Shown in pieces: positions 3,510-47,473 of a stretch of 64,000 bases of DNA; position 1 is the stretch's first letter, and each line of letters begins with the position of its first letter. The position numbers were made by a program, and so were the translations under genes. This stretch comes from Escherichia coli (lineage in GTDB: Bacteria > Pseudomonadota > Gammaproteobacteria > Enterobacterales > Enterobacteriaceae). The notes under the pieces were generated by a model that was not told where the DNA came from, did no database searches, and saw nothing but the letters and a program-made list of their open reading frames with translations. Where the stretch lies: the NCBI RefSeq assembly GCF_044324785.1, contig NZ_CP172127.1; one strand, 5' to 3'.

Positions 3510-3757
3510 ATATGCAATAATTAATTGCACTGCCCCGCCAGCTATAATCGCGGGGCTTCGTTTTTCAGGGATCACAAAACCCGAAACTTCTTCCATCTGC
3601 CAGCAACAATGCCTCTTCCTTTATAGTGTTCTCCGGATCTACAGCATCCTGAAGTAGCGCGATGTACTCACTGGCTATCTGCATCAGAAAGTTAAAAACA
3701 ATGTTTTTAACCTATAAAAATGGCGCTGTATTTGCGCCATTTTTATCATTCAATGCA

Positions 3758-8615: not shown

Positions 8616-8624
8616 GGAGGAACA

Positions 8625-9581
8625 ATGTCATACCCACTTTTTGACAAAGACGAGCACTGGCATAAGCCAGAGCAGGCGTTTCTCACCGATGACCACCGGG
8701 CCATTCTGCGCTTCGCCGTAGAGGCGCTAATGTCCGGTAAAGGAGCGGTGCTGGTGACGCTGGTGGAAATACGCGGCGGCGCGGCGCGCCCGCTCGGTGC
8801 GCAGATGGTGGTGCGCGAAGATGGTCGTTACTGCGGTTTTGTCTCTGGCGGCTGCGTGGAGGCCGCTGCCGCTTTTGAAGCGCTGGAGATGATGGGCTCA
8901 GGCCGCGATCGCGAAATTCGCTATGGCGAAGGTTCGCCGTGGTTTGACATCGTTCTGCCCTGCGGCGGTGGGATCACGCTGACGCTCCATAAACTACGCT
9001 CGGCACAGCCTCTGCTCGCCGTGCTGAACCGCCTGGAACAGAGAAAACCGTCGGGTCTGCGCTACGATCCGCAAGCTCAATCGCTGGTGTGCCTGCCCAC
9101 GCAAACCCGGACGGGCTGGAATCTCAATGGCTTTGAGGTGGGGTTCAGGCCATGCGTCAGGCTGATGATTTACGGACGTTCTCTTGAGGCGCAGGCAACC
9201 GCGAGTCTTGCAGCAGCCACAGGCTATGACAGCCATATCTTCGATCTTTTTCCGGCCTCAGCCAGCGCTCAGATCGATACCGATACGGCGGTCATTTTGC
9301 TGTGCCATGATCTCAACCGGGAGCTGCCAGTGTTGCAGGCCGCGCGAGAAGCAAAACCCTTTTATCTCGGCGCATTGGGCAGCTATCGAACCCACACTTT
9401 ACGTCTGCAAAAGCTCCACGAGCTGGGATGGTCCAGGGAGGAGACAGCGCAAATCCGGGCACCCGTCGGGATATTCCCCAAAGCCCGGGATGCGCATACT
9501 CTGGCACTCTCCGTGCTGGCAGAAGTCGCCTCTGTACGTCTCCATCAGGAGGAGGATTCATGCCTGCCCCCGTCGTCCTGA
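8625..9581 (+). CDS. paoD: Molybdenum cofactor insertion chaperone PaoD (XdhC-like)
   Basis: 318 aa, 9 bp downstream of paoC; length and context match PaoD. Confidence 0.85.
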   Translation: MSYPLFDKDEHWHKPEQAFLTDDHRAILRFAVEALMSGKGAVLVTLVEIRGGAARPLGAQMVVREDGRYCGFVSGGCVEAAAAFEALEMMGSGRDREIRYGEGSPWFDIVLPCGGGITLTLHKLRSAQPLLAVLNRLEQRKPSGLRYDPQAQSLVCLPTQTRTGWNLNGFEVGFRPCVRLMIYGRSLEAQATASLAAATGYDSHIFDLFPASASAQIDTDTAVILLCHDLNRELPVLQAAREAKPFYLGALGSYRTHTLRLQKLHELGWSREETAQIRAPVGIFPKARDAHTLALSVLAEVASVRLHQEEDSCLPPSS

Positions 9582-9760: not shown

Positions 9761-10954
9761 CTAAAGCGCACCGGCCTTCTGGCGTGCGGTAACAAAGGTC
9801 AGTACGCCAGCGCAAAGGAGCAGCACGCTACTCATAGCAAACGTGCTCTGCCAGCCAAGGCGGTCAAATACGATGCCTCCTGCTGTTGATCCAAGGGCGA
9901 TGGCGAGCTGAATCACCGCGACCATGAGCCCGCCTCCGGCTTCGGCGTTGTCAGGCAACGTACGCGCAATCCATGTCCACCATCCGGTTGGCGCGGCGGT
10001 GGCCAGCATGCCCCAGAGTCCTAACAGCAGCGAGACCGTCCAGACGTGATGCCCGGTAAGCATCAGACCGATAGCAATGACGGCCATCAGTCCGGGTATG
10101 GCCATCAGCGTGGGGTAGAATTTTCTGTTGAGAAATGCCGAAACAACCAGCGTGCCAATAAAACCGGCCACGCCGATAATCAGCAAAATCAACGACAAGC
10201 CTAAGGAATTAACCCGTGTCACCGACTCCAGAAACGGGCGCACATAGGTGAATAGCGCAAACTGCCCCATGAAAAACAGGCCACAAGCTATCATGCCGAC
10301 CACAACCATGCGGCGGCTAAATAAGCGGAATACCGCGCCAAGTGACGTGTGGCTTTTATTCGCATCCATACTGGGCAGGCTGATGCACTGCCAGATAAAG
10401 GCGACAACCGCGATGGGCACCAGGCACAAGAAAGCGCCTCGCCATCCGACCGTAGCCCCCAGATAGCTTCCCAGCGGTGCGGCCACGACCGTCGCCAGCG
10501 CATTACCGGCGTTGAAAATTGCCAGCGCACGCGTGACCTGATGCTGCGGCACCAGACGAATCGCCGTTGCCGCTGACATCGACCAGAATCCGCCAATAGC
10601 CACACCAATCATCGCACGACCGACCATATACATCAGATAACTGGAAGCCAGCGCAATAATAAGCCCCGATACGGCCATCAGAACCGTCATCCCCAGCAGC
10701 AGGAACTTACGATTCATCTTTCCAGCTAGCGTTGAAAGCGTCAGGCTGGTCAGAACCGCCAGCGCGCCGGAGATAGCAATCCCCTGCCCTGCCAGCCCCT
10801 CCGTCACGCCTAAATCGCGGGTAATCGGCGTGAGCAGGCTGACGGGCATAAATTCAGAAGCAATCAGCACAAACACGCACAGGGTCATGGCAAAAATACC
10901 GCCCCAGTATGCGTGCTGATGATGAGGTGATGGTGTTTGGCTTAGTGTCGACAT
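9761..10954 (-). CDS. MFS-family transporter (12 predicted TM segments)
   Basis: 397-aa highly hydrophobic ORF with the repeated helix pattern typical of major facilitator superfamily transporters. Confidence 0.75.
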   Translation of the reverse strand: MSTLSQTPSPHHQHAYWGGIFAMTLCVFVLIASEFMPVSLLTPITRDLGVTEGLAGQGIAISGALAVLTSLTLSTLAGKMNRKFLLLGMTVLMAVSGLIIALASSYLMYMVGRAMIGVAIGGFWSMSAATAIRLVPQHQVTRALAIFNAGNALATVVAAPLGSYLGATVGWRGAFLCLVPIAVVAFIWQCISLPSMDANKSHTSLGAVFRLFSRRMVVVGMIACGLFFMGQFALFTYVRPFLESVTRVNSLGLSLILLIIGVAGFIGTLVVSAFLNRKFYPTLMAIPGLMAVIAIGLMLTGHHVWTVSLLLGLWGMLATAAPTGWWTWIARTLPDNAEAGGGLMVAVIQLAIALGSTAGGIVFDRLGWQSTFAMSSVLLLCAGVLTFVTARQKAGAL

Positions 10955-11029
10955 AGTGAAATTTCACAAAGATCAGGATAAAAGCCACCTGCCATAGACC
11001 GGTGGCTTTGCATCAATTCAGGAGAGGTT

Positions 11030-12187
11030 TTATTTCAGTTTGGTCTGGAAAAATTGCTCGAACTTCGCGAAAGGTATTTTTCCGGCCACGTTATCGTACA
11101 GGTCCACGTGATTTGCCCCTGTTACCACCACCAACTCTTTGTCTTTACTGCCAACCGCCTTGTAAGCATCTTCAGCAAAATAGCGTGAATGTGCTTTCTC
11201 ACCGGTCACAATCAGCGTCGGAATGGTGATTTCACTGGCGTAGCTCAACAGCGGCATATTCATAAATGACAGCGGCATCGTTGCCGTCCACGCCCCGGTA
11301 GAGTTAACGGAACGTTCGTGGAAGCCGCGCGGCATGCGATAGTAGTCAAAGAACTCTTTCAGTACCGGATGAGGATTTGCCGGCAGCGTTTCTGGCAGAA
11401 TACGCTCGCCCGCACTGACCTTGCCGTTGCTGTCGACATTAATATCATGACCACCGTGAGCGAACGTTCCGCTCTGCGCATCCTTCCAGCGCTGTTCATT
11501 CAGATATTGCAGAACAGCACGACGGTCGGCGGTAGAATAACGGTCTTTGCCATCCCCCACACCATGGCCCATCGCCCGGCTCATGTCATACATCACGCTG
11601 GTAGCTACCGCTTTAACGCGGGTATCCATCGCCGCGTCGTTCAGCGCCATGCCGCCCCAGCCACAAATACCGAGCAGCCCGATACGGTTGCGATCTACCT
11701 CTTTTTGCAGCCCTAAGAAATCCACCGCCGCGCTGAAATCTTCAGTGTTGATATCCGGTGAGGCGACGTTTCGCGGATAGCCGCCACTTTCCCCGGTGTA
11801 AGAAGGATCGAACGCCAGGGTAACAAACCCTCGTTCCGCCAGCGTCTGCGCATACAAGCCGCTGGATTGCTCTTTCACCGCGCCAAATGGCCCACTGACC
11901 GCAATCGCCGCCAGCTTGCGATCGCCACGGTCTTTAGGCAGGTAAAGATCGCCCACTAAGGTGATGCCATATCGGTTCGGGAACGAGACTTTACGGTGAT
12001 CGACTTTCTGGCTCTCGGCGAACGTTTTATCCCATTTATCTGTCATGGACACAGGGGCATTAGGATTGGTTGAATCAGCATAACTCATTGTCGTGACTCC
12101 ACTTAATGATGCGAAAAGCAGCATGGTCGGCATCGCGGTTTTTAGCGTTCGGGTGAAGGCTTTCATAAAAATCCCCATAAAAAACAA
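11030..12187 (-). CDS. Secreted alpha/beta hydrolase (dienelactone-hydrolase-like)
   Basis: Nucleophile-elbow-like motif GICGWGG; signal peptide MKAFTRTLKTAMPTMLLFASLSGVTTMSYA if translation starts at the internal ATG at 12166; upstream in-frame ATGs at 12178 and 12187 are alternatives. Confidence 0.7.
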   Translation of the reverse strand: MFFMGIFMKAFTRTLKTAMPTMLLFASLSGVTTMSYADSTNPNAPVSMTDKWDKTFAESQKVDHRKVSFPNRYGITLVGDLYLPKDRGDRKLAAIAVSGPFGAVKEQSSGLYAQTLAERGFVTLAFDPSYTGESGGYPRNVASPDINTEDFSAAVDFLGLQKEVDRNRIGLLGICGWGGMALNDAAMDTRVKAVATSVMYDMSRAMGHGVGDGKDRYSTADRRAVLQYLNEQRWKDAQSGTFAHGGHDINVDSNGKVSAGERILPETLPANPHPVLKEFFDYYRMPRGFHERSVNSTGAWTATMPLSFMNMPLLSYASEITIPTLIVTGEKAHSRYFAEDAYKAVGSKDKELVVVTGANHVDLYDNVAGKIPFAKFEQFFQTKLK

Positions 12188-13679: not shown

Positions 13680-14600
13680 TTACGCCAGCACCCTCTCTAG
13701 CTTATTCACCGCCGCCACATACTTCGCCGGATTTTTATCTTTCAGCACCGCCAGATTACGTTGCTTCCAGCGAATAGCCGGAAGATGCTGAATTTCAGGA
13801 TAGCGATACCGCGACCAGTCAGGGCTGTTTTGCTTAAAACTGAGCAAGAACTCGCGATCCAGATCCGTAAGATGTGACTTCAACGCCTGCGGCAGCAAAG
13901 TCGTTACTGACAGCAGCGATTCCAGCGACGTTTCCTGCTGAGTCATCCCCGAAAATTCCTGAGCATACAGCGTCGTGATCCGCTCTGTATCCCAGTTTGG
14001 GGCCAGCAACTCGGCAATGGGGCGGGGATGGCCTGCCAGATAACAAAGAAAACCGTCAAAGATCTCCCGCATCAGTCCCGGTTTCTCCAGCATATTCAGC
14101 ACATCAAACAGATCGCGCGGGTGCTGACGATCAAGCGCTGCGCAGATTTTACCGCCATAAAGATCCGCCAGCGAGACGACACTCATGGTGGTGAAGCCAT
14201 ACTCCATTTCCACACGTTCGCACACAGGCATTTCTGCCGGAGGCAACAACAGCCCGCGCCAGACCGGGCTAACCTCGATCTTAATCTTTGCATCAGCGGT
14301 ATTCACAATGATGCGCTTTTCATCCGCTTTATTTTCCTGCCGAATCGCGGTGATCCCCGGTCTGCCGTTCAGCGATGCAGTAATCCTCTTCAAAGCGTCG
14401 TTGATAGCCGCCAGATCAGTATCGCGATCCGCAAAGCTCTTATACGCCAGATCAATATCCACCGACAGACGGGGAAAATCCTGCACAAACAAATTGATTG
14501 CCGTGCCGCCTTTCAACGCGAAACAGGACTCCTTCGCCACATGCGGCAGAGCAGCCATCAACAGCTTAACCTGCCGGGCATAACTATCACGCAGATCCAT
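13680..14600 (-). CDS. AbiEii-family nucleotidyltransferase (type IV toxin-antitoxin / abortive-infection toxin)
   Basis: 306 aa; N-terminal nucleotidyltransferase motif LKGGTAINLF...LSVDIDLAY characteristic of AbiEii/DUF1814 proteins; overlaps the upstream gene by 14 bp. Confidence 0.75.
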   Translation of the reverse strand: MDLRDSYARQVKLLMAALPHVAKESCFALKGGTAINLFVQDFPRLSVDIDLAYKSFADRDTDLAAINDALKRITASLNGRPGITAIRQENKADEKRIIVNTADAKIKIEVSPVWRGLLLPPAEMPVCERVEMEYGFTTMSVVSLADLYGGKICAALDRQHPRDLFDVLNMLEKPGLMREIFDGFLCYLAGHPRPIAELLAPNWDTERITTLYAQEFSGMTQQETSLESLLSVTTLLPQALKSHLTDLDREFLLSFKQNSPDWSRYRYPEIQHLPAIRWKQRNLAVLKDKNPAKYVAAVNKLERVLA

Positions 14601-15390
14601 CTTCGACTCCTTCCGGTTTAAATGCGCGTGGAACAGTAATTTGATAATCCGGCTCCAGCCAGCCGCCGGGTATGATTTGCCGCTTTCCCGTACCTGTTTC
14701 TATACCGCTTTGATCAATATACTGAAAATAAGGGTGTCCATTACGCCGGGCAAGGTAAAGCATCACCCGGTTGGTTTTAACCGAATGACTGGCGCAGAGT
14801 AACGCCTGCAATTTACGCGGGCTGAGAAGATTCATCCCCTGAAACAGAGCATCGGCATGTTCGAACGATATCAACGAAGGAACGCCGCAGGCGATCTCAT
14901 ACGCGGCCAGTTCCGGGGCACTGCCTGCTAACTGCCGGTCGCCAATTTTCAGTTCCGTAGTCAATGACGTTACATCTACGGTAAGCCCCGATGTATACAG
15001 CGTGATAAATGTTGCAGATTGTTCGAAGGCAGCAAACCATCCCGGCAGCTTAACGTAAGCCGGAAGCGCGAGCCAGACCTGCGGCTTACCCGGTTCGGTA
15101 TAGTGCGCATGGCCCTGAAACGCAAGGCTGGTTAGCCCCGCCACCCGAACAGGCTTTTCCCACTGTGTTTGAAGGCAGTAAACCGCGTCTACCCAATCCG
15201 GCTCACGGCCCGTCCGGCAGTACACGCCGTGAGCGATGCGCCTGAGCCAGCCATTTTGAACATAGAGATAAGAAAGCTTACGATCTACGCCGTTGCGGGT
15301 AAGCCATGACTGGAGCAGCACCTGACCGGGTAGCGTATTTTGCATCAACCAGTTTAGATAGTTTGGCAAATGTCGCTCCTGAATAGACAT
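14587..15390 (-). CDS. AbiEi-family antitoxin/transcriptional regulator
   Basis: 267 aa, immediately upstream of and overlapping the AbiEii gene; N-terminal segment resembles the AbiEi winged-helix domain (GWLRRIAHGVYCR). Confidence 0.65.
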   Translation of the reverse strand: MSIQERHLPNYLNWLMQNTLPGQVLLQSWLTRNGVDRKLSYLYVQNGWLRRIAHGVYCRTGREPDWVDAVYCLQTQWEKPVRVAGLTSLAFQGHAHYTEPGKPQVWLALPAYVKLPGWFAAFEQSATFITLYTSGLTVDVTSLTTELKIGDRQLAGSAPELAAYEIACGVPSLISFEHADALFQGMNLLSPRKLQALLCASHSVKTNRVMLYLARRNGHPYFQYIDQSGIETGTGKRQIIPGGWLEPDYQITVPRAFKPEGVEDGSA

Positions 15391-15652
15391 TAGTAGAAAT
15401 ATTTAAACCAGTGTAGGTTCAGGGATACGCCACAGCAAGAAATAGTTTACTTATTCCTCATTTTGTCTACTTAAAATTGACATTGAGAAAAAAATACAAA
15501 CTTACCTACATTCAGGCAAAGTGCGACAAATAGACTCGGTCGGTTTAAAGAGAACGTGTAACATAGATGCAAATCGAATAGACATTGTTGCCAGCCGTTC
15601 CAAGGTTGTGGGGCGCTGCATGGCCTGAGACGTGATAAATACAGGGAACACA

Positions 15653-18600
15653 ATGAAATTCACTGAAGATACCCGAGTAAAAATCCCCGTCATCCTCCAC
15701 CTGATACGGCTGGGCTACCACTACCTGTCCCTTAAAGAACAACGCTGGGACAAAGAAACCAATATCTTCCCTGACCTCTTCACCGCTGCGATTGGCAGAA
15801 TAAATCCCGGACTTGTGCCAGACGACATCGGACGCCTGTTAAAAGACCTCACGCTGCTTCTCGACAACGATGATCTGGGCCGCGCCTTCTTCGAAAAACT
15901 CAGTGACCGTTCCGGTATCAAACTGATCGACTTTGATAACTTCAACAACAACAGTTTCCATGTCGTCACCGAACTGACCTGCGAAAACGGTGATGAAGAA
16001 TTCCGCCCGGACATCACGCTGCTGATCAACGGCATGCCGCTAATCTTTATCGAAGTGAAAAAACCCAACAATCGGGAAGGCATCGTCGCAGAACGCAACC
16101 GCATCAACGAACGCTTTAAAAACCCCAAATTCAAACGCTTCGCCAACATCACCCAGTTCATGATCTTCTCCAATAACATGGAGTATGACGACAGCGACCC
16201 GGAGCCGATTCAAGGGGCATTCTACGCCAGCAGCTCTTACAGCAACCCGGTATTCAACTACTTCCGCGAAGAAGAACTCTTCAACCTGACCAACTTACTG
16301 AAACCGCTGTCAGAAGAAACCGAAATCGCCGTCCTGAAAGACAACAACCTGGAAGTGATCCGCACCAACCCGGAATTTCAGACCAACAAAGATCACAACC
16401 GCCCGACAAACCGCCTCTGCACCGCGCTGTTGAGCCGGGATCGGCTGGCATTTATCCTGCGCTATGCGCTGGTGTATGTAGCCGAACCGGGCGGCATCCA
16501 AAAACACATCATGCGCTACCCGCAGCTCTTCGCCACCAAAGCGATTGAGCGCAAACTGAACGCTGGCGTGAAAAAAGGCATTATCTGGCACACCCAGGGC
16601 AGTGGGAAAACCGCATTGGCATACTACAACGTGCGCTTCCTGACAGATTACTTCCAGAATCAGCAGGTGATCCCGAAATTCTACTTTATTGTCGATCGTC
16701 TTGATCTGCTCCAGCAGGCGCAGCGTGAATTCACCGCCCGTGGCTTAATCGTTCACCTTATCGACTCCCGCGAAGCCTTCACCCGCGATATCAAAGCGAC
16801 GCAGGCGCTGCACAACCACCACGGCAAAGCGGAAATCACCGTCGTCAACATCCAGAAATTCCGCGATGACCCGGATGTCGTCACCACCAAAGACTACGAC
16901 ATCAACATCCAACGCGTGTACTTCCTCGATGAAGTCCACCGCAGCTACAACCCCAAAGGGAGCTTCCTGGCGAATTTAAGCCAGTCGGACACCAACGCCA
17001 TCAAAATTGGCCTGACCGGTACGCCTCTGCTGGGCACAGACTACAACTCCCGCGACCTCTTCGGCGACTACATCCACAAATACTACTACAACGCCTCCAT
17101 TGCCGACGGCTACACGCTGCGCCTGATCCGTGAAGAGATCGCCACCAACTACCGGATGATCCTGCAACAGGCGCTAAAAGACGTAGAAGTCAGAATGGGC
17201 GATGTGGATCGCAAAGACATCTACGCCCATCCCAGTTTCGTCAAACCGATGCTGAACTACATCGTCACCGACTTTGCCAAAAGCCGGGGCGCACTGAATG
17301 ATGACACCATCGGCGGCATGGTGATTTGCGACAGCTCAGAACAGGCCAAGCAGATGTTTGAGATATTCAACACTGACTACGCCGAATCGCCCACCGCTGC
17401 CGATGACGTCGCCGAAGAAATGCCGGTATTACAGGCCGCAGAGCCTGCCGCCGTTTACCAGATCCACGCCAAAGAAACGCGGAAAATCAAACGCGCCGCC
17501 CTGATCCTGCACGACGTCGGCAGCAAGCAGGAGCGCAAAGAATGGGTGGATCAATTCAAAGCGGGCGAGATTGACCTGCTGTTCGTCTACAACATGTTGC
17601 TCACGGGCTTTGACGCCAAACGGCTAAAAAAACTCTACCTCGGGCGGGTGATCAGAAAGCACAACCTGCTCCAGGCGCTGACCCGCGTCAACCGAACCTA
17701 CAACCACTTCCGCTACGGCTATGTGGTGGACTTCGCCGACATCCGCCAGGAATTTGACGCCACCAACAAAGCCTACTTCGAAGAGCTACAGGCTGAACTG
17801 GGCGATGAAATGGAGCATTACTCCCGCCTGTTCAAATCAGCGGATGAGATTCGCGAAGAAATCGAACATATCAAAGACGTTCTGTTTAGCTTCGATACCG
17901 AAAACGCGGAAATCTTCACTGACCAGATAAACCAGATCCATGACCGGGAAACCGCGCTGGTACTGAAAAACGCGCTGGCCGACGCCCGCAGCCTGTACAA
18001 CCTGATTCGCCTCCAGGGCAACACTGAGTTTCTCCAGGCGCTGGATTTCAACAAACTCAACATCCTTTACCGCGAAGCCAGCCGCCGCCTCGACTTACTC
18101 AACCTGAAGGCGGATCTGGAACAGGGTGTTGACCTCTCCGGCCTGCTGAACCGGGCGCTGGAAGAGGTGATCTTTGAATTCCACAAAGTGGGCGAAGAAG
18201 AGCTGGTACTGGCCGACGAGCTGAAAGAGACGCTGCGCCGCACCCGCGAAGCGCTGGCCGCCAACTTCGACCAGCAGGACCCGCAGTTCGTCAGCCTGAA
18301 AGACGAACTGGAGCGTCTGTTTAAGAAAAAGAAACTCAGCGAAGTCACCCAGCAAGAAATGGTTGCGAATATCGGCACACTCAATAAAATTCATGGCCGC
18401 ATCAAAGAGCTAAACCGCCAAAATAACCTGCTGCGCCAGAAATACCGTGGCGACGTGAAATACGCGCGTACCCACAAACGCCTGCGCGAGCGCGGCGGCC
18501 TGAGCGAGCCGGAGCGTAAAATCTTCGAAGCACTGCTTGGCGTTAAGCTGGATGCGGATGAAAAAGTGCTGAATAACAGCCAGATACTGAACAACGAAAG

Positions 18601-18751
18601 CTATTTTGAGCGGCAGATTGTGTCATGTGTACTCGATCACTTTGAACAACAGCAGCACATCACCCTGAGTGCGAAAGCGGCTGGCGACATCAACCGCCTG
18701 ATTGTGGCGGAATACCTGAACGAATTTAATACCGGAGCACGTACGTGGTAG
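15653..18751 (+). CDS. hsdR: Type I restriction enzyme, endonuclease/translocase subunit HsdR
   Basis: N-terminal PD-(D/E)xK nuclease motif (IFIEVKK), helicase motif I (HTQGSGKT) and motif II (FLDEVHRS); ATG at 15653 preceded by AGGGA, with an upstream in-frame GTG at 15632. Confidence 0.85.
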   Translation: MKFTEDTRVKIPVILHLIRLGYHYLSLKEQRWDKETNIFPDLFTAAIGRINPGLVPDDIGRLLKDLTLLLDNDDLGRAFFEKLSDRSGIKLIDFDNFNNNSFHVVTELTCENGDEEFRPDITLLINGMPLIFIEVKKPNNREGIVAERNRINERFKNPKFKRFANITQFMIFSNNMEYDDSDPEPIQGAFYASSSYSNPVFNYFREEELFNLTNLLKPLSEETEIAVLKDNNLEVIRTNPEFQTNKDHNRPTNRLCTALLSRDRLAFILRYALVYVAEPGGIQKHIMRYPQLFATKAIERKLNAGVKKGIIWHTQGSGKTALAYYNVRFLTDYFQNQQVIPKFYFIVDRLDLLQQAQREFTARGLIVHLIDSREAFTRDIKATQALHNHHGKAEITVVNIQKFRDDPDVVTTKDYDINIQRVYFLDEVHRSYNPKGSFLANLSQSDTNAIKIGLTGTPLLGTDYNSRDLFGDYIHKYYYNASIADGYTLRLIREEIATNYRMILQQALKDVEVRMGDVDRKDIYAHPSFVKPMLNYIVTDFAKSRGALNDDTIGGMVICDSSEQAKQMFEIFNTDYAESPTAADDVAEEMPVLQAAEPAAVYQIHAKETRKIKRAALILHDVGSKQERKEWVDQFKAGEIDLLFVYNMLLTGFDAKRLKKLYLGRVIRKHNLLQALTRVNRTYNHFRYGYVVDFADIRQEFDATNKAYFEELQAELGDEMEHYSRLFKSADEIREEIEHIKDVLFSFDTENAEIFTDQINQIHDRETALVLKNALADARSLYNLIRLQGNTEFLQALDFNKLNILYREASRRLDLLNLKADLEQGVDLSGLLNRALEEVIFEFHKVGEEELVLADELKETLRRTREALAANFDQQDPQFVSLKDELERLFKKKKLSEVTQQEMVANIGTLNKIHGRIKELNRQNNLLRQKYRGDVKYARTHKRLRERGGLSEPERKIFEALLGVKLDADEKVLNNSQILNNESYFERQIVSCVLDHFEQQQHITLSAKAAGDINRLIVAEYLNEFNTGARTW

Positions 18752-18909
18752 AACTGTAATTTAGAGATAAAACCAAAACCCTGATCGACAGCCTGAAAAG
18801 CATCTGTGCGAACTACGGCCTGGGCAACGACGGTAACGAATTCAAAATTATCACTCAGGCATTCCTGTACAAATTCCTGAACGACAAATTCGCCTTTGAA
18901 GCCAAAAAG

Positions 18910-20382
18910 GTGGATAAAAGCATCGCCAGCGCCGAAAAATGGGAAGTCGCGCTCAATCAGATGAGCGAAGAACAGCGGGATAAACTGCAACTGAAGATGA
19001 GCGCCGACACTGCGCGTCTGAAGCCGCATCACTTCATTCAGTATTTATACAACCGTCAAAATGAGGCCAATTTCGCCACCACCTTTGACGACACCCTGAT
19101 GGACATCGCCGCCACCAACAACGACGTCTTCGCGGTCAAAACTGACGGCGGCGCGAAAGTGGTGCTGTTTGAGCGCCTCAGCCAGTACATCGCCGACGAA
19201 TCAAGGCGCGACGACTTCTGCCGCGCCATTATCAACAAACTGGCCGATTTCAGCTTCGAGCGCATCTTCACGCAGAAATTCGACTTCTACGCCACTATCT
19301 TTGAATACCTGATCAAAGACTACAACAGCAACTCCGGCGGCAAATACGCGGAATACTATACGCCCCACGCCGTGGCGCGCATCATGGCGGAAATCCTGGT
19401 GCCGAAAGCACAACAGGGCGTAGTGCGCAACGTAAGCTGTTACGACCCGTCCGCCGGTTCCGGCACCTTACTGATGAACGTGGCGCACGCCATCGGGGAA
19501 GATCGTTGCAGCATCTTCGCGCAGGACATCTCGCAGAAATCCTCCAGCCTGCTGCGCCTGAACCTGATCCTCAACAATCTGGTGCATTCGATCCCCAACG
19601 TGATTCAGGGCAACACCATTCTGCACCCGTTCCACAAGGACGGCAGCGCGCTGAAACGCTTTGACTATATCGTCTCTAACCCGCCGTTTAAGATGGATTT
19701 CAGCGATTTCCGCGACGATTTGGATAGCAAGGAAAACCAGCAACGTTTCTTTGCCGGGATACCAAAAATCAAAGCCAAAGCCAGGGACAAAATGGAAATT
19801 TACCAGTTGTTCCTGCAACACATCATTTTCTCGCTGAAACCGGATGGTAAGGCGGCGGTCGTGGTGCCGACCGGGTTTATCACCGCGCAGTCGGGCATTG
19901 ATAAAGGGATTCGCGAACATCTGGTGAAAAACAAGATGCTGGCGGGTGTGGTTTCCATGCCGTCGAATATCTTCGCCACCACCGGCACTAACGTATCGAT
20001 CCTGTTTATTGACGCCAGCAACAAAGAGAAAGTGGTGCTGATCGACGCCTCGAATTTAGGTGAAAAGGTCAAAGACGGCAAAAACCAGAAAACGGTGCTG
20101 ACCGAAGAAGAAGAGCAGCGCATCTGCGAAGTGTTCAACAACAAGTGGAGCGAAGAGGATTTCTCGGTGGTGGTCAGCTATGACGAGATCGCCGGGAAAA
20201 ATTACTCGTTCAGCGCCGGGCAGTATTTCGATGTGAAAATTGAATACACCGATATGACGCCGGAACAGTTTGCCGCGAAGATGAACGGGTTTACGGAGAA
20301 TCTGGAGAGTTTGTTTAGCCAGTCGCGCGAGCTGGAGGTGGAGATTAAAAAGCAGATGGCGGGGCTGAATTTCCATGGTTAA
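18910..20382 (+). CDS. hsdM: Type I restriction-modification methyltransferase subunit HsdM (start uncertain)
   Basis: AdoMet motif DPSAGSGTLL, catalytic NPPF, and the conserved EYYTPHAVARIMAEIL segment. The annotated start is a GTG; about 150 bp of in-frame HsdM-like sequence lies upstream without a canonical start (see findings). Confidence 0.8.
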   Translation: MDKSIASAEKWEVALNQMSEEQRDKLQLKMSADTARLKPHHFIQYLYNRQNEANFATTFDDTLMDIAATNNDVFAVKTDGGAKVVLFERLSQYIADESRRDDFCRAIINKLADFSFERIFTQKFDFYATIFEYLIKDYNSNSGGKYAEYYTPHAVARIMAEILVPKAQQGVVRNVSCYDPSAGSGTLLMNVAHAIGEDRCSIFAQDISQKSSSLLRLNLILNNLVHSIPNVIQGNTILHPFHKDGSALKRFDYIVSNPPFKMDFSDFRDDLDSKENQQRFFAGIPKIKAKARDKMEIYQLFLQHIIFSLKPDGKAAVVVPTGFITAQSGIDKGIREHLVKNKMLAGVVSMPSNIFATTGTNVSILFIDASNKEKVVLIDASNLGEKVKDGKNQKTVLTEEEEQRICEVFNNKWSEEDFSVVVSYDEIAGKNYSFSAGQYFDVKIEYTDMTPEQFAAKMNGFTENLESLFSQSRELEVEIKKQMAGLNFHG

Positions 20383-21493
20383 AACTATTGGTGATGCTTG
20401 TAATATTAGTACAGGTAAACTTGATGCAAACCAGGCTGTAAAAGGTGGTGATTATCCGTTTTTTACGTGCGCAGAGTTCCCTGAACAAATCGATCATTAT
20501 GCATTTGACGGCGATGTGGTTCTTATTGCTGGCAATAATGCAAGAGGAAACTTTCACGTAAGCAGGTATCAAGGGAAATTTAATGCTTACCAGCGAACCT
20601 ATGTGCTTACAGCCAAACATGGTTATGATATTGATTATATTTACTATGCCTTAAGACTTGAATTAAAGCGATTGCGAGAAAAATCTCAAGGCTCGCAAAC
20701 AAAGTTTCTGACAATGCCGATTTTGACCAGTATATCGCTAGGAAACCTAGTCGAGACTGAACAATCGACAGTTTCAAGAGTATTAAAAATACTGGATAAA
20801 AAAATCGCTCTCAACAATCGTATCAACGCCGAGCTGGAAGCGATGGCGAAAACACTGTATGACTACTGGTTTGTACAGTTTGATTTCCCTGATGCCAACG
20901 GAAAACCGTATAAAACCTCCGGCGGGAAGATGGTGTACAACGCCACGCTGAAACGGGAAATTCCGGCGGGGTGGAATATTAAAAATCTTGGCGATATAGC
21001 GGAACTATATCAGCCTAAGACCATTTCAGGTAACGATTTTATTGATGATGGTGAATATCTTGTATATGGAGCCAACGGTATTGTAGGAAGATTCAATAAA
21101 TATAACCATGAAGAACCTGTCGTTACAATCACCTGCCGTGGAAATACGTGCGGCAATATAAACGTCACACGACCATATTCATGGATTACAGGGAATGCAA
21201 TGGTGGTTAAGCCAAAGTTTAACTATATTTCACCTTATTATATTTATAATTTATTGTCGATATCGGAAGTTGATAAAGTCATTACTGGCTCTGCTCAACC
21301 TCAAATTACGCGAGCAAACCTAGCTCCACTTAAGGTTGTTGAACCAGCAGAGGACATTACGCAAAAATACTCAAAGTCTGTTGATGCTTTTTTTAAAAAG
21401 CATATCTCAATATTAGATGAAAATGATAATTTATTAAAACTCCGCGACTGGCTCCTCCCCCTGCTTATGAACGGACAGGTCACGGTCAAATAA
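20375..21493 (+). CDS. hsdS: Type I restriction-modification specificity subunit HsdS (two target-recognition domains)
   Basis: 372 aa; overlaps the hsdM stop by 8 bp; two variable AT-rich domains separated by a central conserved spacer (LDKKIALNNRINAELEAMAKTLYDYWFVQFDFPD) and a C-terminal conserved helix (LLKLRDWLLPLLMNGQVTV). Confidence 0.8.
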   Translation: MVKTIGDACNISTGKLDANQAVKGGDYPFFTCAEFPEQIDHYAFDGDVVLIAGNNARGNFHVSRYQGKFNAYQRTYVLTAKHGYDIDYIYYALRLELKRLREKSQGSQTKFLTMPILTSISLGNLVETEQSTVSRVLKILDKKIALNNRINAELEAMAKTLYDYWFVQFDFPDANGKPYKTSGGKMVYNATLKREIPAGWNIKNLGDIAELYQPKTISGNDFIDDGEYLVYGANGIVGRFNKYNHEEPVVTITCRGNTCGNINVTRPYSWITGNAMVVKPKFNYISPYYIYNLLSISEVDKVITGSAQPQITRANLAPLKVVEPAEDITQKYSKSVDAFFKKHISILDENDNLLKLRDWLLPLLMNGQVTVK

Positions 21494-21653
21494 TCCCCGC
21501 CGTGTTTTGCGAGGCGCATTCCAGATCCACATTGCGCCGCGCTCACCGCTGTAAAACCGCTTGCCGTTCATAACCGATCGAAGTATCTTTCTCCCGCGCC
21601 TGCAAAATCAGGCGTCGGGATTAGCCTCCTGAAAACCGTTACAGGCGACACTT

Positions 21654-21673
21654 GACGCACCAGCGTCTTTTTT
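21654..21673 (+). terminator. Weak intrinsic-terminator-like hairpin downstream of hsdS
   Basis: GACGC-ACCA-GCGTC hairpin followed by TTTTTT; the 5-bp stem is marginal. Confidence 0.35.
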
Positions 21674-21835
21674 GTGTCGTGCGTTCGGCTACACCTCAAT
21701 GGCGGGCCGGGCGGGGGCGTCGCAAGACGCGCCGGTTTCCTGTAACGCCGGTAAGGCTAACCCCGTCCGGTTCCGCCACCCATGAGATTAGCCTCTCTAG
21801 TGGCGGACATAATAAACCGTTACAGGAGATGCCCT

Positions 21836-22306
21836 ATGGCTACAATCCTCACCCCTGACTGCGATTTACTCGATCTGTTATCCGTTCCCTTCAATGCCAC
21901 CACGGATTTTACTGTCCTTGCCGATTACTGCACCCGCTTCGCCGAAACCCTGATAGAAACCGACGATCCCGCGCTGCGGCTGGCGCTGAGCGGACGGCTT
22001 CACGCGGCTCTTGCGCTACTGCAACCCACACTGCATGACCCCATCCCGCCGCATCTTACCGAAAGCCTGACCGTTAATACCCTTCCCGCCACACCAGAGC
22101 ACTTTATTTCCGAACCCGATTCCTTGTGCGAATACTGCCTCGCACTGCTCCAGCTTCTGCTGGAACGCCCGGCGGAGCCAAAAATGGAGCAAACCCTGAC
22201 CGGGCTGCTGTGTGAGCTGGTCTGGAATTTCACGGAAGGACTCAAATCCCCGCGCTGGCTGCGTACCGCCGACGGCGTAAAATTTATCAGTGAGGTGGCC
22301 GCATGA
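21836..22306 (+). CDS. Hypothetical protein (157 aa from ATG 21836), unknown function
   Basis: ATG at 21836 preceded by CAGGAG; Leu/Ala-rich, no recognisable motif; its stop overlaps the start of the downstream Ner-like fragment (ATGATG). Confidence 0.5.
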
Positions 22307-22655
22307 TGCAACAGGACTGGCATTCCACCGACATTATCGCCACGCTGAAAAAGCGGGGAACGTCTCTGGCGGCGCAGAGAAAAACTCATTGCGGACGCGC
22401 TGTAAATATCGTCAGAAATCATCTGGCCTTCAAGGTACTTTGATAGCAAAGGCAAGCAGGCTGGTTCAGTCCCGTGTTTCTCTTCTTGCATTTTCAGAAA
22501 TGGGAGGCTGGGAGTCTATCGAAATGGTTCGTCGATATGCTCACCTCGCACCTAATCACCTTACCGAACACGCACGGCAAATAGACTCGATCCTGAACCC
22601 ATCGGTCCCAAATTTGTCCCAGTCAAAAAATAAGGAAGGTACTAATGATGTGTAA
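22303..22655 (+). pseudogene. Fusion remnant: frameshifted Ner/Nlp-like HTH gene fragment joined to the 3' end (~190 bp) of a tyrosine-integrase gene
   Basis: The first 24 codons ([24 protein letters not shown]) match the Ner/Nlp family N-terminus as I recall it, then the frame breaks. From about 22460 the DNA and translation ([36 protein letters not shown]) parallel the C-terminus of the intact int at 62240-62431, and the stop sits at the same offset from the tRNA-derived repeat. Confidence 0.55.
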
Positions 22656-22715
22656 CTTATTGATTTAAATGGTGCCGATAATAGGAGTCGAACCTACGAC
22701 CTTCGCATTACGAAT
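22652..22715. repeat. Prophage attachment-site repeat (attL): 64-bp direct repeat containing the 3'-terminal 46 nt of tRNA-Thr (thrW)
   Basis: Identical 64-mer to 62428-62491 (GTAACTTATTGATTTAAATGGTGCCGATAATAGGAGTCGAACCTACGACCTTCGCATTACGAAT); the sequences diverge on both sides. Confidence 0.85.
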
Positions 22716-23044: not shown

Positions 23045-23716
23045 ATGGTGATTGATGCAATGTTAAGCGTTCAGATGACTCCACAAGCAAAAGTTAGCTT
23101 CGAGGAGCAATGTTTTTTTCATGCTTCATGTCTTGTTGTTGCCCCAATAAATGTTGGAGCATTCTCCTACTTTGGCGCTAATTGTATGCTCGGCGGCTTT
23201 ACGATGGGTAGATTTTGTTCAGTTGCTCCAGGAGTAAAAATTGGCCTTGGCGAGCATGAAACTGGGTATTTTTCTACGCATCCTTTTTTCTTTGGCTCAA
23301 AAAATGGTTTTAAAATCCCTGATGGTATAGGAATGCAACGCGACCTCTCTCAACAGAAGCATGGTATACCAAGAATTGGTCATGACGTATGGATAGGTGC
23401 AAATGCGGTTATCAGGCGAGGTATAACTATTGGTACTGGCGCTGTTATTGCTGCTGGCGCTATTGTCACCAAAAATGTCGATCCATATTCAATCGTAGGT
23501 GGCGTTTCTGCAAAACACCTAGGGTACAGATTTGAGGAATCAATCATCAAAGAGTTACTGGATAGCCAATGGTGGGAATATGATTTAAGCTCATTTATTG
23601 GGATTGATACAAGGACACCGACGACTTTTTTAGAGCAGTTTAATGCTGTAAAAGATAAAAAGAAGGCATCTTATAAGAGATTTACAATTCTTCCATCCGG
23701 TGAAATTGTTGAATAG
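23045..23716 (+). CDS. Hexapeptide-repeat xenobiotic acetyltransferase (XAT; Vat/CatB-like)
   Basis: Left-handed beta-helix repeats plus the C-terminal segment [53 protein letters not shown]...[10 protein letters not shown], which closely parallels streptogramin-A / chloramphenicol-B acetyltransferases as I recall them; AT-rich; lies between attL and the tailspike gene. Confidence 0.7.
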
Positions 23717-23735: not shown

Positions 23736-26105
23736 TTAAATAAACATAAGAATAAACATCAGAAGTTCTTCGTATCTGATACCATACTGATAGCCAGCAG
23801 GTTTAATAATAACCTGCCTTCCTGTGTAATATTCCTCGTCGTACCACTCTCCTGTTTCATTGTTTTTAACACTCCTAATCAATACCTCTGGAGCATAAAT
23901 ATCATCCCATTCATCATAACACCAGAACGCATAGTTATTAGGGTCAAGACCGTATTTTCTGAGAATATTACCTACAGTTTGTGCACCAACGCCGAAATGA
24001 ATCCGAGCGCCATCACTCTTGATCTTTACTGCATCTTTAAATTTAAACCTCCAGATATTTTCCTTTATTTCAAGCGCAGCAAGACGCTCTGATTCTGTTG
24101 TTTTCTCGTCAGCCTCAATACGCAATTTCAGCTCTTCATTCGACGTGTTGATACTGCCAGTACCAGCGTATACCTGTGACCATCGAAATGCTGATGTTCC
24201 GTTTGAGTTAACATTATCAACAGTTGGTTTTATAAGGCCAGAAAAATGAGTTTCAGGTGTATTAATATATGTATATGCACCTGCTGTACTACGAGTCCTT
24301 AACTCAAAGCTGTCTATATCAACACCAGTCCTACGAATTATAAGGAAGTTATTTCCTGCGGAACCAGTATCGGTTTGAGTGCTAACAGACAATCCGTTTC
24401 GTGTATCAATACGTATATTCTTCCCGTTCTCCAGCGAAGCAGAATTATGTAGATACAGCGAGTTGTCAGTGTAGAGATTGTGTTTACCTACATTGCTAAA
24501 TGTATAAGTATTGCTTGTGTTATCACTGTTCCTATGGAATTGCTGAAGAGTGTAGGCAGAAGATGCTCCGTATCCATCACAATGGAAATTTCTGCACAGC
24601 TGCAAATCGAATAACAATACGGTGTCAGCATTAATGCTCACATTATTAAAGCATGTTGCAAAGTTGGCACCATACTGTGAATTGGAATCGCCAATCTGTG
24701 CGCACACATCAAGCAAACCAAAAGTTACATTGGTAAAGTTATTTGCATCACCGGCGTCAAGAACAATCCCTTTCTTAGTCCCTGAATACCCTCTGGCAGT
24801 GCCGATCTCAACTCCCTGGAATGAACACACGCGAGCACGACTAAGCTTAAGACCAACCCATTCCAGACCATGATCGTAACCTTTTGCTGCGCGGTGAATA
24901 AACATACCATTCATGATGAGAAGGAATCTGTTATCAAGCCGTACTGGTTCAAGTTGGGCATTAATACCAACATTTGTGCATATACATTCACCATAAGCAT
25001 AACGATTCGTTTCAAATATACGATCATCAGCGTCGTAAATGCCTCGTAATGCCTTGGCGGCATCAATATTAAGCAATGTAAAATATGTCTTCTGCTTAAT
25101 TTCAAAAAAATTTGCAACATTATGCGTTGTGATATCACTCACACGCATTGATAAAATCCCCTCTTCTGGAGCGGTGCGAATGAATCCATCAAGGAACTGT
25201 TCATTATAACTTTTGGCTATCTGATAACATCCAACAGCATCAATGCGTTCGATTGTGAACTGCCAACTATCACCACAGTTAAAAGACCATCTCCAGCCGT
25301 ATTTCTGAGCGAATTCATCATATTCAACATTTGCAGGTTCAGAACAGAAAGATAAAAATCTAAATGTTGGTTTTGGCCTTAGATGGTTAATCCCGGAACC
25401 TCTTGGGGTATATATGGCATTATCTCCATTCCCACCTTTTGTTTTAACTGTAAGGTGACTTAAACCAAATTCAATATCATATTTAGTTGGTGCGGCGAAA
25501 ACAAAGCCGTCTTTTGGTGATGTGGTATTGTCAAACACAATAACCGTTTCACCCTGCCCATCACCGCACATATTTACTGGTGGTATATTAACGGGGCCAG
25601 TCAAACTATATGTTCCAGTTGGCACATATAGTTTTCCACCCTCTCCAATAGCATTTGCCGCTGCAATAAATGCCGCCGTATCATCGTTAACACCGTCACC
25701 TTTCGCCCCATAATGCTGTGGCGTAATTAACAGCATACGGTCAGAAAAAATCTCTGTCCTAAGTTGATCAGGATCGTATTTTAATACATTTGGAAAATAA
25801 AACTGCTGAGTGCCATATGCATCATATACAGCCATAGAATGGCCTTGCACGGTAACGAATTTGGCAATCTGTCCGTTATATACCGGATAACCAGCAGCGT
25901 TAATAATGATTGGTTGAGAAACAGGAACGTGAGAACCGTCTTCGTTCTCTACATAAACCGGAATCTGGTTTTCAGGATTTACCGGGTCAGTGTCAATTTT
26001 ACCGATATAAATTTTTCCATTAGCATTTGCTTTAAACGAGCGAGCTAAAGTGAATAACTGACTTGGTTGTGAAACAACAACATTGGCATTTATTGAATCT
26101 GTCAT
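23736..26105 (-). CDS. Phage tailspike protein (P22 gp9-like head-binding domain with a divergent receptor-binding body)
   Basis: N-terminal ~115 aa ([18 protein letters not shown]...[12 protein letters not shown]...[13 protein letters not shown]...VLKYDPDQ) match the P22 tailspike head-binding domain; the remainder is unrelated and AT-rich at the 3' end. Confidence 0.85.
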
Positions 26106-26204: not shown

Positions 26205-27083
26205 TCAGTAGTTATGTACTGAAGGAGGTAATTCTTTATTCTTAAGTCTCATCCATGCGGAAATATTCGTTGGTCCGTCTGGCTCATTAATATCAACATC
26301 TCGTGTGTGATTGATTAAAACGTCTCTCGCCATTCCGATAACATACGAGAATTCATGACCGTAGTCGTAGCATCTGCCGGAATAGTTCGATTGAATTTGT
26401 TTCAGCGCCGGATACAGTTCGCGGAATAATGCCTGTGAGCGGTTGGCATAATCCCATAACCATACAAGGCTGTTTGCTTCTTTTGCAGAAAGCTCGTTGG
26501 TTTTCTTCTCTTGTTTGCCAATGAACTCACCTTCAAGCACTACCCTGTGGATGTACTCTACGGCCAGCGGGATTTGTTCAATTGAAAGTTCATCAATGCT
26601 GTCAATACCAAAACGCTGATGAACCATATTGTATGCATCGTCATAGCGAAGTCCTTTCTTTCCTACCAGCATGTTTACTGCATCGCGTAGCGGTGTTCTT
26701 TCCTCAACAGTGGTTTTCTTTCCTTTTACATACTCGCCATGTTTGCGAATTGAAGGCAGAACTTCTGCTGTTACCCACTTGCGGAATTTGTGCGGGACTG
26801 AACCTTTATTGACTGCATCGCGGCAGCGCAGAACCAATGTATACATACCTGATTCGCTCACAATGCTTAGATTCTGCTCACCACCAAGGGTGTAACTTAA
26901 AGTTACTCCCTTTTCATCGTCATCAAGTGCAGTAAGCGCCTTGCGTGAGTTAGTCAAATCTAAAGCATCACAAACATCTTTAGCTACAAACCACGGCTCA
27001 CCGCACTTGTTGATGACGCGGATTTCACTGTCGCCGAATTTGAAGATGGTGAAATCGTTTTGTGCCTTTGCTATACTTTTCAT
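26205..27083 (-). CDS. ant: Antirepressor Ant (Bro-N/KilAC type) of the immI region
   Basis: 292 aa; N-terminus [25 protein letters not shown] is typical of P22-like Ant; sits downstream of arc. Confidence 0.8.
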
Positions 27084-27151
27084 GTCAATATTTCCTAATC
27101 CGATTTGTTGATGCCGAAGCCCTGACTGTTACAGCAGTTGGGGCTTCAACT

Positions 27152-27313
27152 TTACGCACCAATGCGCCCTTCCTTCTTAAAGCTTTCCATTACTCGCTGA
27201 TAAATCTCAGAATTAACAGACCGACCATTTTCTTCCGCCACCTTGCGTACCAAATCCAATACTTCTTTAGGCCACCGCAAATTGAACTGTGGCATTTTGC
27301 TCATTCCTTTCAT
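27152..27313 (-). CDS. arc: Arc repressor (53 aa)
   Basis: From the internal ATG at 27313: MKGMSKMPQFNLRWPKEVLDLVRKVAEENGRSVNSEIYQRVMESFKKEGRIGA, essentially the P22 Arc sequence as I recall it. Confidence 0.9.
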   Translation of the reverse strand: MKGMSKMPQFNLRWPKEVLDLVRKVAEENGRSVNSEIYQRVMESFKKEGRIGA

Positions 27314-27403
27314 GTTCACCTCACAATATAGGTCCACGGTGGACCTATTGAGAATATAGTAGAGTGCTTCTATCATGTCAATACACTAACTTGGAGTGAT
27401 GGC
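27314..27403. promoter_or_regulatory. Divergent Pant/Pmnt control region with Arc and Mnt operators
   Basis: Perfect palindrome TAGGTCCACGGTGGACCTA (Mnt operator) and ATAGTAGAGTGCTTCTATCAT (Arc operator) between the divergent arc and mnt starts. Confidence 0.85.
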
Positions 27404-27658
27404 ATGGCTAGAGATGATCCGCACTTTAACTTCCGTATGCCTTTGGAAGTAAGAGAAAAATTGAAATTAAGAGCCGAGGCTAACGGAAGGTCAATGAACT
27501 CTGAGTTATTACAAATCGTTCAGGATGCACTATCAAAACCATCACCGATTACAGGATATCGCGACGAAGCTGAACGCTTGGCTGATCAGCAGGCTGAGCA
27601 GTTCAAGGCTATAGTGTTTGAGACACTTAAAAAGATTTATGAAAAGGATTTGAAATGA
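27404..27658 (+). CDS. mnt: Mnt repressor (maintenance of lysogeny)
   Basis: 84 aa, MARDDPHFNFRMPLEVREKLKLRAEANGRSMNSELLQIVQDALSKPSP...; ribbon-helix-helix N-terminus like P22 Mnt. Confidence 0.9.
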   Translation: MARDDPHFNFRMPLEVREKLKLRAEANGRSMNSELLQIVQDALSKPSPITGYRDEAERLADQQAEQFKAIVFETLKKIYEKDLK

Positions 27659-47392: not shown

Positions 47393-47468
47393 TGGTGCTG
47401 GTTAACGGACTTGAACCGCTAGCCATTCGCTTACAAGGCGACCGCTCTACCATTGGAGCTAAACCAGC
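47393..47468 (-). tRNA. Prophage-encoded tRNA (76 nt; anticodon read as UGU, Thr)
   Basis: Hand fold of GCTGGTT...AACCAGCACCA: 7-bp acceptor stem, D-arm GCTC/GAGC, T-arm AGCGG-TTCAAGT-CCGTT, CCA encoded; the anticodon stem has one mismatch. Confidence 0.55.
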
Positions 47469-47473
47469 ATGTT

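Follow-up and report, generated by a model that had tools for sequence, protein, structure and literature searches.

We analysed a 64,000-nt stretch of the Escherichia coli genome (contig NZ_CP172127.1 of assembly GCF_044324785.1; hereafter the window), concentrating on a GC-rich leader and the gene for a 156-aa protein that follows it. Overall, we consider that positions 21561-22306 represent, with a probability of roughly 0.8, the regulatory head and the first gene of a P4/P1-type antisense-RNA immunity operon, which came from a small mobile island at thrW and has since decayed. The part from 21561 to 21835 is a complete P4/P1-type RNA immunity cassette, composed of a promoter, an IsrK/seqA-like leader, a C4/CI-type RNA and two downstream boxes. 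An initial annotation, made from the letters of the DNA alone, did not recognise the leader as a set of known RNA families (C4, IsrK and c4-a1b1). The regulatory mechanism itself is already textbook P4 and P1 biology. The protein family and the content of the gated operon are undescribed in the libraries and literature searched, in which the protein has no name, domain or structural relative; the operon content (a Ner-like regulator, an EFASI RNA and a second tyrosine recombinase) differs from that of P1, P4 and Gifsy-1.

The RNA cassette in front of the 156-aa gene

The leader lies behind a type I restriction-modification (R-M) operon (hsdR 15632-18751, hsdM 18910-20382, hsdS 20375-21493), which bounds the region on the 5' side; a tRNA fragment is the boundary on the 3' side of the stretch made up of cassette, open reading frame (ORF) and pseudogene. 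After the hsdS stop codon at 21493 the G+C content is ~59%, compared with 40% in hsdS. Two pairs of direct repeats, GATTAGCCTC (21619-28 and 21786-95) and AAACCGTTACAGG(C/A)GA (21633-48 and 21814-29), are accompanied by inverted copies, TCCTGTAACG at 21738-47 and AGGCTAACCCCG at 21754-65, so that every element of the repeat-bearing leader described in the initial annotation could be located. The predicted fold of the leader region outperformed 200 of 200 shuffles (z = -5.2). The ribosome-binding site that had been proposed for the ORF is also there, as an AGGAG at 21824-28, 7 nt 5' of the ATG at 21836.

Rfam models placed two known RNA families above their gathering scores on this leader (Table 1). 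Folded alone, the C4-type RNA adopted the shape of its family (-51.7 kcal/mol, z = -4.0) and left the two antisense segments unpaired. Phage P4 carries an isrK-like and C4 pair (8615-8692 and 8420-8507, respectively) at the homologous place, and the entire cassette of the window could be aligned to P4, from the promoter through the first codons of the first gene. In P4, the CI RNA is processed out of the leader transcript and pairs with seqA upstream and seqC downstream, which leads to premature termination; IsrK is a structural homolog of seqA (PMC4825925). An "IsrK-C4 immunity system" has been reported in P4-like prophages (PMC3632133).

The pairing between the C4 RNA and the repeats was quantified across related loci. 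The locus set comprised 91 loci in all (designated L001, L002 and so on where they need to be told apart), including 79 further loci from contigs of one genome per species as well as loci from exact-protein look-ups; the covariation alignment held 69 distinct cassettes, P4 among them. For the upstream boxes, pairing with the exposed C4 segments held in 94.0% of cells, and there were 227 double-change cells; none of 500 shuffles reached as high a value, and slid controls gave 29-48%. Against the downstream boxes, 89.7% of cells were paired, with 218 double-change cells and slid controls at 28-43%. At least a dozen loop variants were present, including CCUGUAACG, CCAGUAAGG, CCAGUAUGG and CCGAUGAGG, each complementary to its own targets. 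In P1/P7 and P4, immunity specificity is known to follow this pattern, loop and target matching variant by variant. The repeats in the leader are antisense targets, and the inverted copies are their complements in the C4 loops. Because each motif changes in step with the complementary C4 segment, we read the interaction as RNA-RNA pairing rather than as a protein site. The cassette sequence lies directly 5' of a gene of the 156-aa family in about 86 of the 91 loci.

The promoter corresponds by position to P_LE of P4, with which it aligns at P4 8730-8700, and transcription would be expected to start near 21596. We compared 67 loci anchored on a conserved CTTGC. Between-locus identity was at the random level (~0.25) upstream of position -8, rose to at least 0.94 at TTG, was low in the 17-nt spacer and returned to 0.8-0.94 at the -10 element (TATCxT). 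Judged from these sequences, conserved hexamers around an unconserved spacer are the signature of a working sigma-70 promoter. With a score of 8/12, the site fell short of the threshold (9/12) of a generic promoter scan, which missed it. Since identity falls to the random level just 5' of the promoter, the variable cargo ends exactly at the promoter.

By analogy with P4, we propose the following course of events. Transcription from the constitutive promoter (21561-89) would yield the IsrK/seqA-like leader, and part of the transcripts would end at the terminator (21654-73). Those that read through would bear the C4/CI-type RNA (21695-21783), which we infer to be processed from them, and its two exposed segments would pair with the upstream boxes (21616-27 and 21637-45) and the downstream boxes (21786-95 and 21818-27). 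The downstream pairing would cover the Shine-Dalgarno sequence and keep the 156-aa gene untranslated; Rho would presumably terminate transcription on the untranslated, C-rich start of the ORF, as it does in P4, and the entire operon would remain silent. The 156-aa protein gene would thereby act as a gate, being translationally coupled to a Ner/SfsB-like regulator. In the window, that regulator and everything 3' of it are dead or deleted.

Table 1. Positions of the cassette, the gene behind it and the adjoining features in the window
Feature	Position	Strand	Evidence or remark
Variable cargo edge, hsdS 3' flank	21494-21560		abuts promoter
Promoter, P4 P_LE homolog by position	21561..21589	+	-35 TTGCCG 21561-66, 17-nt spacer, -10 TATCTT 21584-89
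c4-a1b1 motif (RF03163)	21583-21635	+	43.8 bits
IsrK/seqA-like leader RNA	21596..21673	+	Rfam isrK (RF01394) 68 bits, gathering score 50; two hairpins and intrinsic terminator
Upstream target box b1	21616-27	+	GGGATTAGCCT; in IsrK-like leader
Upstream target box a1	21637-45	+	CGTTACAGG; in IsrK-like leader
Intrinsic terminator of leader	stem 21654-67, T-run after, to 21673	+	terminator-like site, fold
C4/CI-type antisense RNA gene	21695..21783	+	Rfam C4 (RF01695) 79.9 bits, gathering score 45, E 2e-15, positions 1-87/87
Antisense segment in C4 hairpin loop	21738-47	+	UCCUGUAACG; exposed in fold
Antisense segment in adjacent single-stranded stretch	21754-65	+	AGGCUAACCCCG; exposed in fold
Downstream target box b2	21786-95	+	GATTAGCCTC; inverted repeat with C4 segment
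Downstream target box a2	21818-27	+	CGTTACAGGA; inverted repeat with C4 segment; overlaps Shine-Dalgarno AGGAG 21824-28
156-aa protein gene, first gene after cassette	21836..22306	+	conserved ORF, ATG 21836, stop 22304-06
Ner/SfsB-like (HTH_35) pseudogene	22303..22457	+	N-terminal 24 codons intact; Pfam HTH_35 profile positions 1-20, 26.8 bits
Tyrosine integrase 3' remnant	22455..22655	+	last 66 codons and stop; phrog_1 integrase, end of PF00589
46-nt duplicate of thrW 3' end	22670..22715	-	exact 46-nt identity; att duplication by resident prophage
Intact thrW, tRNA-Thr(cgt)	62446-62521		other end of prophage

One side observation concerns the C4/CI RNA gene itself. ORFs annotated as "ash family protein" (Pfam Phage_ASH, PF10554) are this RNA gene translated, both in the window (21652-21858, + strand) and in the E. 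coli locus L001 (12207-12365), and longer proteins in databases (199-494 aa) are read-through calls across it. The Phage_ASH protein family looks spurious.

The 156-aa gene, its partner and their relatives

The ORF behind the cassette had been given as 157 aa; it is present, and its product has 156 aa, since 157 is the number of codons with the stop at 22304-06 included. A large protein collection held 409 relatives of the protein, and an exhaustive profile search of 1.84 billion representatives returned 231 clusters at 50% identity; all family members that could be placed came from Enterobacterales. The median pairwise ratio of non-synonymous to synonymous substitution rates (dN/dS) in the family was 0.26 (1,384 pairs). 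Among orphan copies it was 0.31. Between the window and L001, a remnant that shares the downstream lesion, it was 0.12, with 21 synonymous and 8 non-synonymous differences. The ORF is conserved and the repeats recur at homologous loci; on the strength of these sequence comparisons we regard it as a real, conserved gene, as the initial annotation had assumed.

The absence of a recognisable motif was borne out as well: the protein had no match in Pfam, PHROGs, NCBIfam, PADLOC or the PDB sequences. The profile and structure search that had been suggested for it returned no named family and a generic four-helix bundle, modelled by AlphaFold2 with a predicted local distance difference test (pLDDT) score of 75 and without a membrane segment. 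Judging by its context, it most probably serves the early operon as a small helical factor that binds proteins, and is neither an enzyme nor a toxin. Other candidate clues were set aside. Homology to P4 epsilon or orf151 was rejected (hhalign probability ~0.1%), and so was membership of a defence system, PADLOC having no match for the 156-aa protein, the HTH_35 protein or Integrase_1. Apparent domain fusions, which might have hinted at function, were long family members produced by read-through ORF calls across a second C4 region, although these calls led to the satellite-type contexts described below. An apparent plasmid context (L092 14923-15453, Pantoea pJZ2-04) turned out to be an apparent P2-like prophage contig deposited as a plasmid; the homolog there is 36% identical and lies between ogr and a HicB gene, with no cassette detected upstream.

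The start of the ORF is the conserved ATG at which the 65-codon ORF of P4 also starts, and the two proteins begin alike (MATTLTPSHPE... in P4, MATILTQxHPLL in the family). The first ~310 nt of the ORF in the window are C-rich and G-poor. In P4, the Rho-dependent terminator t_imm has been mapped to X51522 8365-8209 (PMC3177188), a span that equals the first 157 nt of the P4 ORF counted from the conserved ATG. By analogy, a C-rich and G-poor ORF start at the t_imm position (C 0.33-0.41, G 0.14-0.27 in the window) would be consistent with Rho termination as in P4, though it is not proof of it.

The start codon of the next gene overlaps the stop codon of the 156-aa gene, in the ATGATG at 22303 that the initial annotation had pointed out. 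Its description there as a Ner/Nlp-like gene, frameshifted and fused to an integrase remnant, held up in each part. Residues 5-24 match HTH_35/Ner (26.8 bits, cut-off 25). Compared with the intact gene of Escherichia whittamii (L013), 65 bp are lost after 22375, by which the core of the helix-turn-helix (HTH) is gone and the frame is shifted; a TAA follows at 22402-04 in the original Ner frame, the C-terminal part is recognisable to ~22457, and then comes the integrase 3' end. The reading frame is broken, and the gene is not a full-length HTH_35 gene. The same lesion is present in the remnant L001.

The search of related genomes for an intact partner, which had also been suggested, was productive. 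An HTH_35 gene lies immediately 3' of the ORF in 50 of the 91 loci, and the ATGA overlap is kept wherever that gene is intact. The intact partner is a full-length HTH_35 protein (114 bits) that matches the NCBIfam model SfsB at 115 bits, below the equivalog cut-off of 150 bits. In 36 loci it is followed by an Integrase_1/Phage_int_SAM_2 gene, whose product is a distant XerC/D relative, and by an oppositely oriented P4-type integrase gene adjoining a tRNA. Between the Ner-like gene and Integrase_1 lies an EFASI RNA (RF02957, 99-119 bits), at 11733-11861 in L002, which is the E. coli asn-tRNA version of the module, and at 11300-11429 in L006; this region is deleted in the window. L002 also has a gene for a HigA-family antitoxin (10779-11135; TIGR02607, 90.8 bits), with no HigB adjacent, between the Ner-like gene and the EFASI RNA.

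Of the core genes of P4-like satellites, these related loci have only the P4-type integrase, in 36 of them. In the window and within 10 kb in the 91 loci, no tblastn match of at least 50% coverage was found for P4 alpha, cnr, orf151, epsilon, sid, delta or psu. A match to P4 AlpA was present in one locus only (L049), and no P2/P4-type cos site was found in the 91 loci. Because alpha, sid, delta, psu, epsilon and cos were all without a match, the elements fall outside the definition of a P4-like satellite. Distant family members (E ~1e-16) occur in satellite-type elements that are compact and encode a P4-type integrase, AlpA, AntA and a Toprim/DUF927 primase-helicase. Two such satellite-like elements are L125 (1950-10032), integrated between yicC and a LysR gene, and L126 (177-7990), which also have int-alpA RNA. 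The distant members, too, belong to operons under C4 control: in L125 the gene comes second, behind a kil-like 65-aa ORF, and in L126 it lies just 5' of the cassette. Because of this, the family is an early-operon component of P4-integrase elements generally.

Comparison with known systems and alternative explanations

The immunity region of P4 has the order P_LE - seqA - CI RNA - seqC - kil - epsilon - orf151 - cnr - alpha. The locus in the window shares with it the promoter position, an IsrK-like seqA leader and a C4-family CI RNA, together with two boxes complementary to that RNA on both its upstream and its downstream side, the downstream box lying at the Shine-Dalgarno sequence. The start region is also conserved (GGAGGCTGCC..ATGGCTAC), with both proteins beginning MAT; the ORF is rich in C in its 5' part, at the place of t_imm in P4, and the intact relatives have a P4-type integrase adjoining a tRNA. 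By contrast, the first gene encodes a helical protein of 153-156 aa instead of the 65-aa ORF product of P4, with only ~18 similar residues, and a Ner/SfsB-like gene, an EFASI RNA and a Xer-like recombinase replace epsilon, orf151, cnr and alpha.

The C4 RNA family is also shared with immI of P1/P7 (c4 RNA - icd - ant) and with the C4-antirepressor modules of lambdoid phages (SfV, Stx phages and 2H10), and the RNA region is ~72% identical in DNA to C4 phages of the P1/P7 type and of the lambdoid group. In P1, translation of the first small gene is blocked and the coupled downstream gene is thereby silenced, a logic that the window shares. The genes behind the RNA differ: icd/ant antirepressors there, the 156-aa protein and a Ner-like regulator here. 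The IsrK - orf45 - anrP - isrJ region of Gifsy-1 in Salmonella is similar in its IsrK-family leader with a terminator and in an upstream ORF that shares a stop/start overlap (AUGA) with the gene behind it. Translation of that upstream ORF is needed for the downstream gene in Gifsy-1 (PMC4825925). On the other hand, short IsrK activates in trans in Gifsy-1, and orf45 overlaps the C4-like region, whereas the cassette in the window precedes a long conserved ORF and repression by a C4-type RNA is what the covariation leads us to infer. Mu Ner and E. coli SfsB (Nlp) are the counterparts of the second gene, in that intact partners are full-length HTH_35 proteins and the window keeps the first 24 codons; unlike SfsB, the intact partners stay below the equivalog cut-off, and the copy in the window is a pseudogene.

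Several points weigh against an operon under P4-type control. The c4-a1b1 match in the window is just under its gathering score of 46.7; relatives exceed that score (50.0 bits in L009, 53.6 bits in L126). About eight loci are without the C4 RNA and retain the ORF, and RNA control is therefore not indispensable. A four-helix bundle is a generic fold, the structure matches are generic only, and the role proposed for the protein is read from its context only. Similarity between the 153-aa family and the 65-aa ORF of P4 covers only the first ~18 residues (hhalign probability 6.8%). That P4 ORF is one that we take to be kil. Placing the 156-aa gene in the "kil slot" is thus a statement of position, on that assumption, rather than one of shown homology.

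The C4-less variants include L018, L082, L070, L049, L074 and L067. In L018 (~9920-9970), a deletion running precisely from one direct repeat, b1, to the other, b2, removed the C4; only one further copy was found in the genome of L018, and its C4 is of different specificity. The ORF is open in L049, L070, L074 and L082 despite the loss of C4 and without an HTH partner. In L074, a fragment of the C4 loop is kept beside its own a2 target, and the two would fold into a hairpin in cis (CCGATAAAG...CTTTATCGGAGG) that covers the Shine-Dalgarno sequence. Two canonical loci, L016 and L026, are without the C4/IsrK cassette. The C4 slot of L016 (9841-9925) is occupied by an 87-nt sRNA-Xcc1 (RF02221, 69.5 bits), whose loop UUCGUGA is complementary, by eye, to UCACGGA at the Shine-Dalgarno sequence; this complementarity suggests that the antisense regulator may have been swapped there and the logic kept.

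Four other explanations were considered. The best of them, though still an unlikely one, is that the cassette and the ORF are inert leftovers of a dead island that have not yet eroded. Everything downstream has decayed, with the Ner-like gene a pseudogene and the EFASI RNA, Integrase_1 and the P4-type integrase lost, and orphans are common and sometimes truncated. Decoy immunity to known viruses found no support: no IMG/VR contig carries the two target boxes of the window, so that there is no known target in trans, and a looser target-box pattern gave 32 matches, none of which is a cassette. Yet the cassette is intact by every measure, the ORF is open with the low dN/dS given above between two remnant copies that share the lesion, and the unit of cassette and ORF is retained in 814 of 5,426 complete E. 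coli genomes (~15%).

Somewhat less likely again is an addiction module in which the 156-aa protein is a Kil-like toxin and the C4 RNA its antidote. The gene sits in the slot assumed to be that of P4 kil, and P4 Kil is reportedly lethal on overexpression. The cassette and the ORF persist together at many orphan sites, and transposon-directed insertion-site sequencing (TraDIS) of S. Typhi scored the IsrK-like elements of P4-like prophages as required (PMC3632133). A toxin held in check by C4 is difficult to reconcile, however, with an ORF that stays open in the C4-less variants, HTH-less orphans included, or with the C4 of different specificity in L018. Nor does such a module predict purifying selection in orphans, which is what the dN/dS values point to. 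The predicted structure is that of a soluble bundle of helices, with no membrane segment, and the similarity of the protein to the putative Kil is confined to the first residues.

The initial annotation had conjectured a type II toxin-antitoxin pair with the layout of HigBA or MqsRA, that is, a 156-aa toxin with an overlapping HTH antitoxin or autorepressor, and this conjecture was not sustained; we consider it highly improbable. The likeness is one of two small genes with a stop/start overlap, the second of them an HTH gene, and the neighbouring cargo often includes toxin-antitoxin and defence genes. But the first protein is a predicted four-helix bundle without similarity to RelE, HigB or MqsR in Pfam, NCBIfam, PADLOC or the PDB, and its partner belongs to HTH_35 (Ner/SfsB) rather than to Xre, HigA or MqsA. 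The first gene is also independent of the second: the ORF is open without an HTH partner in 40 of 89 loci, the window included, at lengths of 144-165 aa except for one of 111 aa, and the same dead partner is found in the window and in ~800 E. coli genomes. Moreover, both genes are under a separate, well-supported RNA control. Least credible of all is that the AACCGTTACAGG and GATTAGCCTC motifs bind a protein such as the Ner-like regulator, for which gel shifts had been suggested, since, although two direct copies of each flank the regulatory region and a DNA-binding gene lies downstream, the motifs covary with the complementary C4 segments in 69 cassettes, each interaction showing more than 200 compensatory cells, and are present in P4, which has no Ner-like gene.

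Probable history at thrW, cargo and prevalence

Turning back to the decayed immunity operon, its 3' end records a succession of elements. The integrase remnant shares 61% identity with the C-terminal end of the resident prophage's integrase (61271-62431) and derives from an earlier thrW-targeting integrase outside the island backbone. In prophage-free E. coli the remnant directly adjoins intact thrW-proA-proB. The likely history is that an island at thrW was followed by a lambdoid phage at the same site, that a deletion fused the 3' end of the phage's integrase gene to the Ner-like gene, and that the present prophage (~22.7-62.4 kb) arrived afterwards.

This prophage occupies 22716-62445 in thrW and has, besides its integrase gene, a tailspike-like ORF (23736-26105, - strand), a 223-aa ORF beside the att site (23045-23716) and tRNAs Thr-tgt and Asn-gtt at 47393-47548. 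Some 5 kb from the C4 cassette it carries a P22-type immI region (26205-27658), a second antisense-RNA immunity system unrelated to the first, with a sar antisense RNA (RF00262) at 27085-27151, an ant-like gene at 26205-27083 (- strand) and two small Arc/Mnt-like ORFs at 27152-27658. Elsewhere in the window, an IS009 RNA match (RF02111, 189.5 bits) lies at 3552-3752 on the - strand.

In all contexts examined, the cargo immediately 5' of the cassette promoter was made up of genes for defence or toxins. It is AbiEii/AbiEi with a type I R-M system (hsdRMS) in the window (13680-21493) and in L001, TacAT with AbiE and DUF4747 in Klebsiella (L006 4852-9412), a type I R-M system with embedded DarTG and HTH_73 in Dickeya (L009 1-9601), and Rhs modules in other E. 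coli (L002 1-9388). A C4 RNA match followed by an ORF of the 156-aa family is therefore a cheap landmark for the boundaries of defence cargo.

Among the complete E. coli genomes that carry the cassette and the ORF, the best identity to the window is 95.7%, and the closest database proteins to the 156-aa protein are 94-96% identical. The exact remnant junction is present in ~800 E. coli genomes and the intact module of the L002 type in 69. The wider region 21494-22700 returned 1,333 records with a best match of at least 99%, which we suspect come from the integrase/tRNA flank.

A further and tentative proposal, to which we give little weight, is that the C4 cassette and the 153-aa gene mark an undescribed family of small P4-integrase islands with an insertion hotspot for defence cargo at the promoter edge, and that the orphan units of RNA and ORF act as a sensor. 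The backbone of such islands would run promoter - IsrK/C4 cassette - 153-aa gene - Ner-like gene - EFASI RNA - Xer-like recombinase - integrase - tRNA, with the hotspot for AbiE, type I R-M, DarTG, TacAT and Rhs just 5' of the promoter. When a related element came in, its transcripts, bearing the targets, would titrate the C4 RNA, and the 156-aa protein would then be translated. If so, the orphan units, retained in ~15% of E. coli genomes, would be more than junk. For P4 biology, the 156-aa gene is a second type of occupant, and a testable one, of the slot taken to be that of kil.

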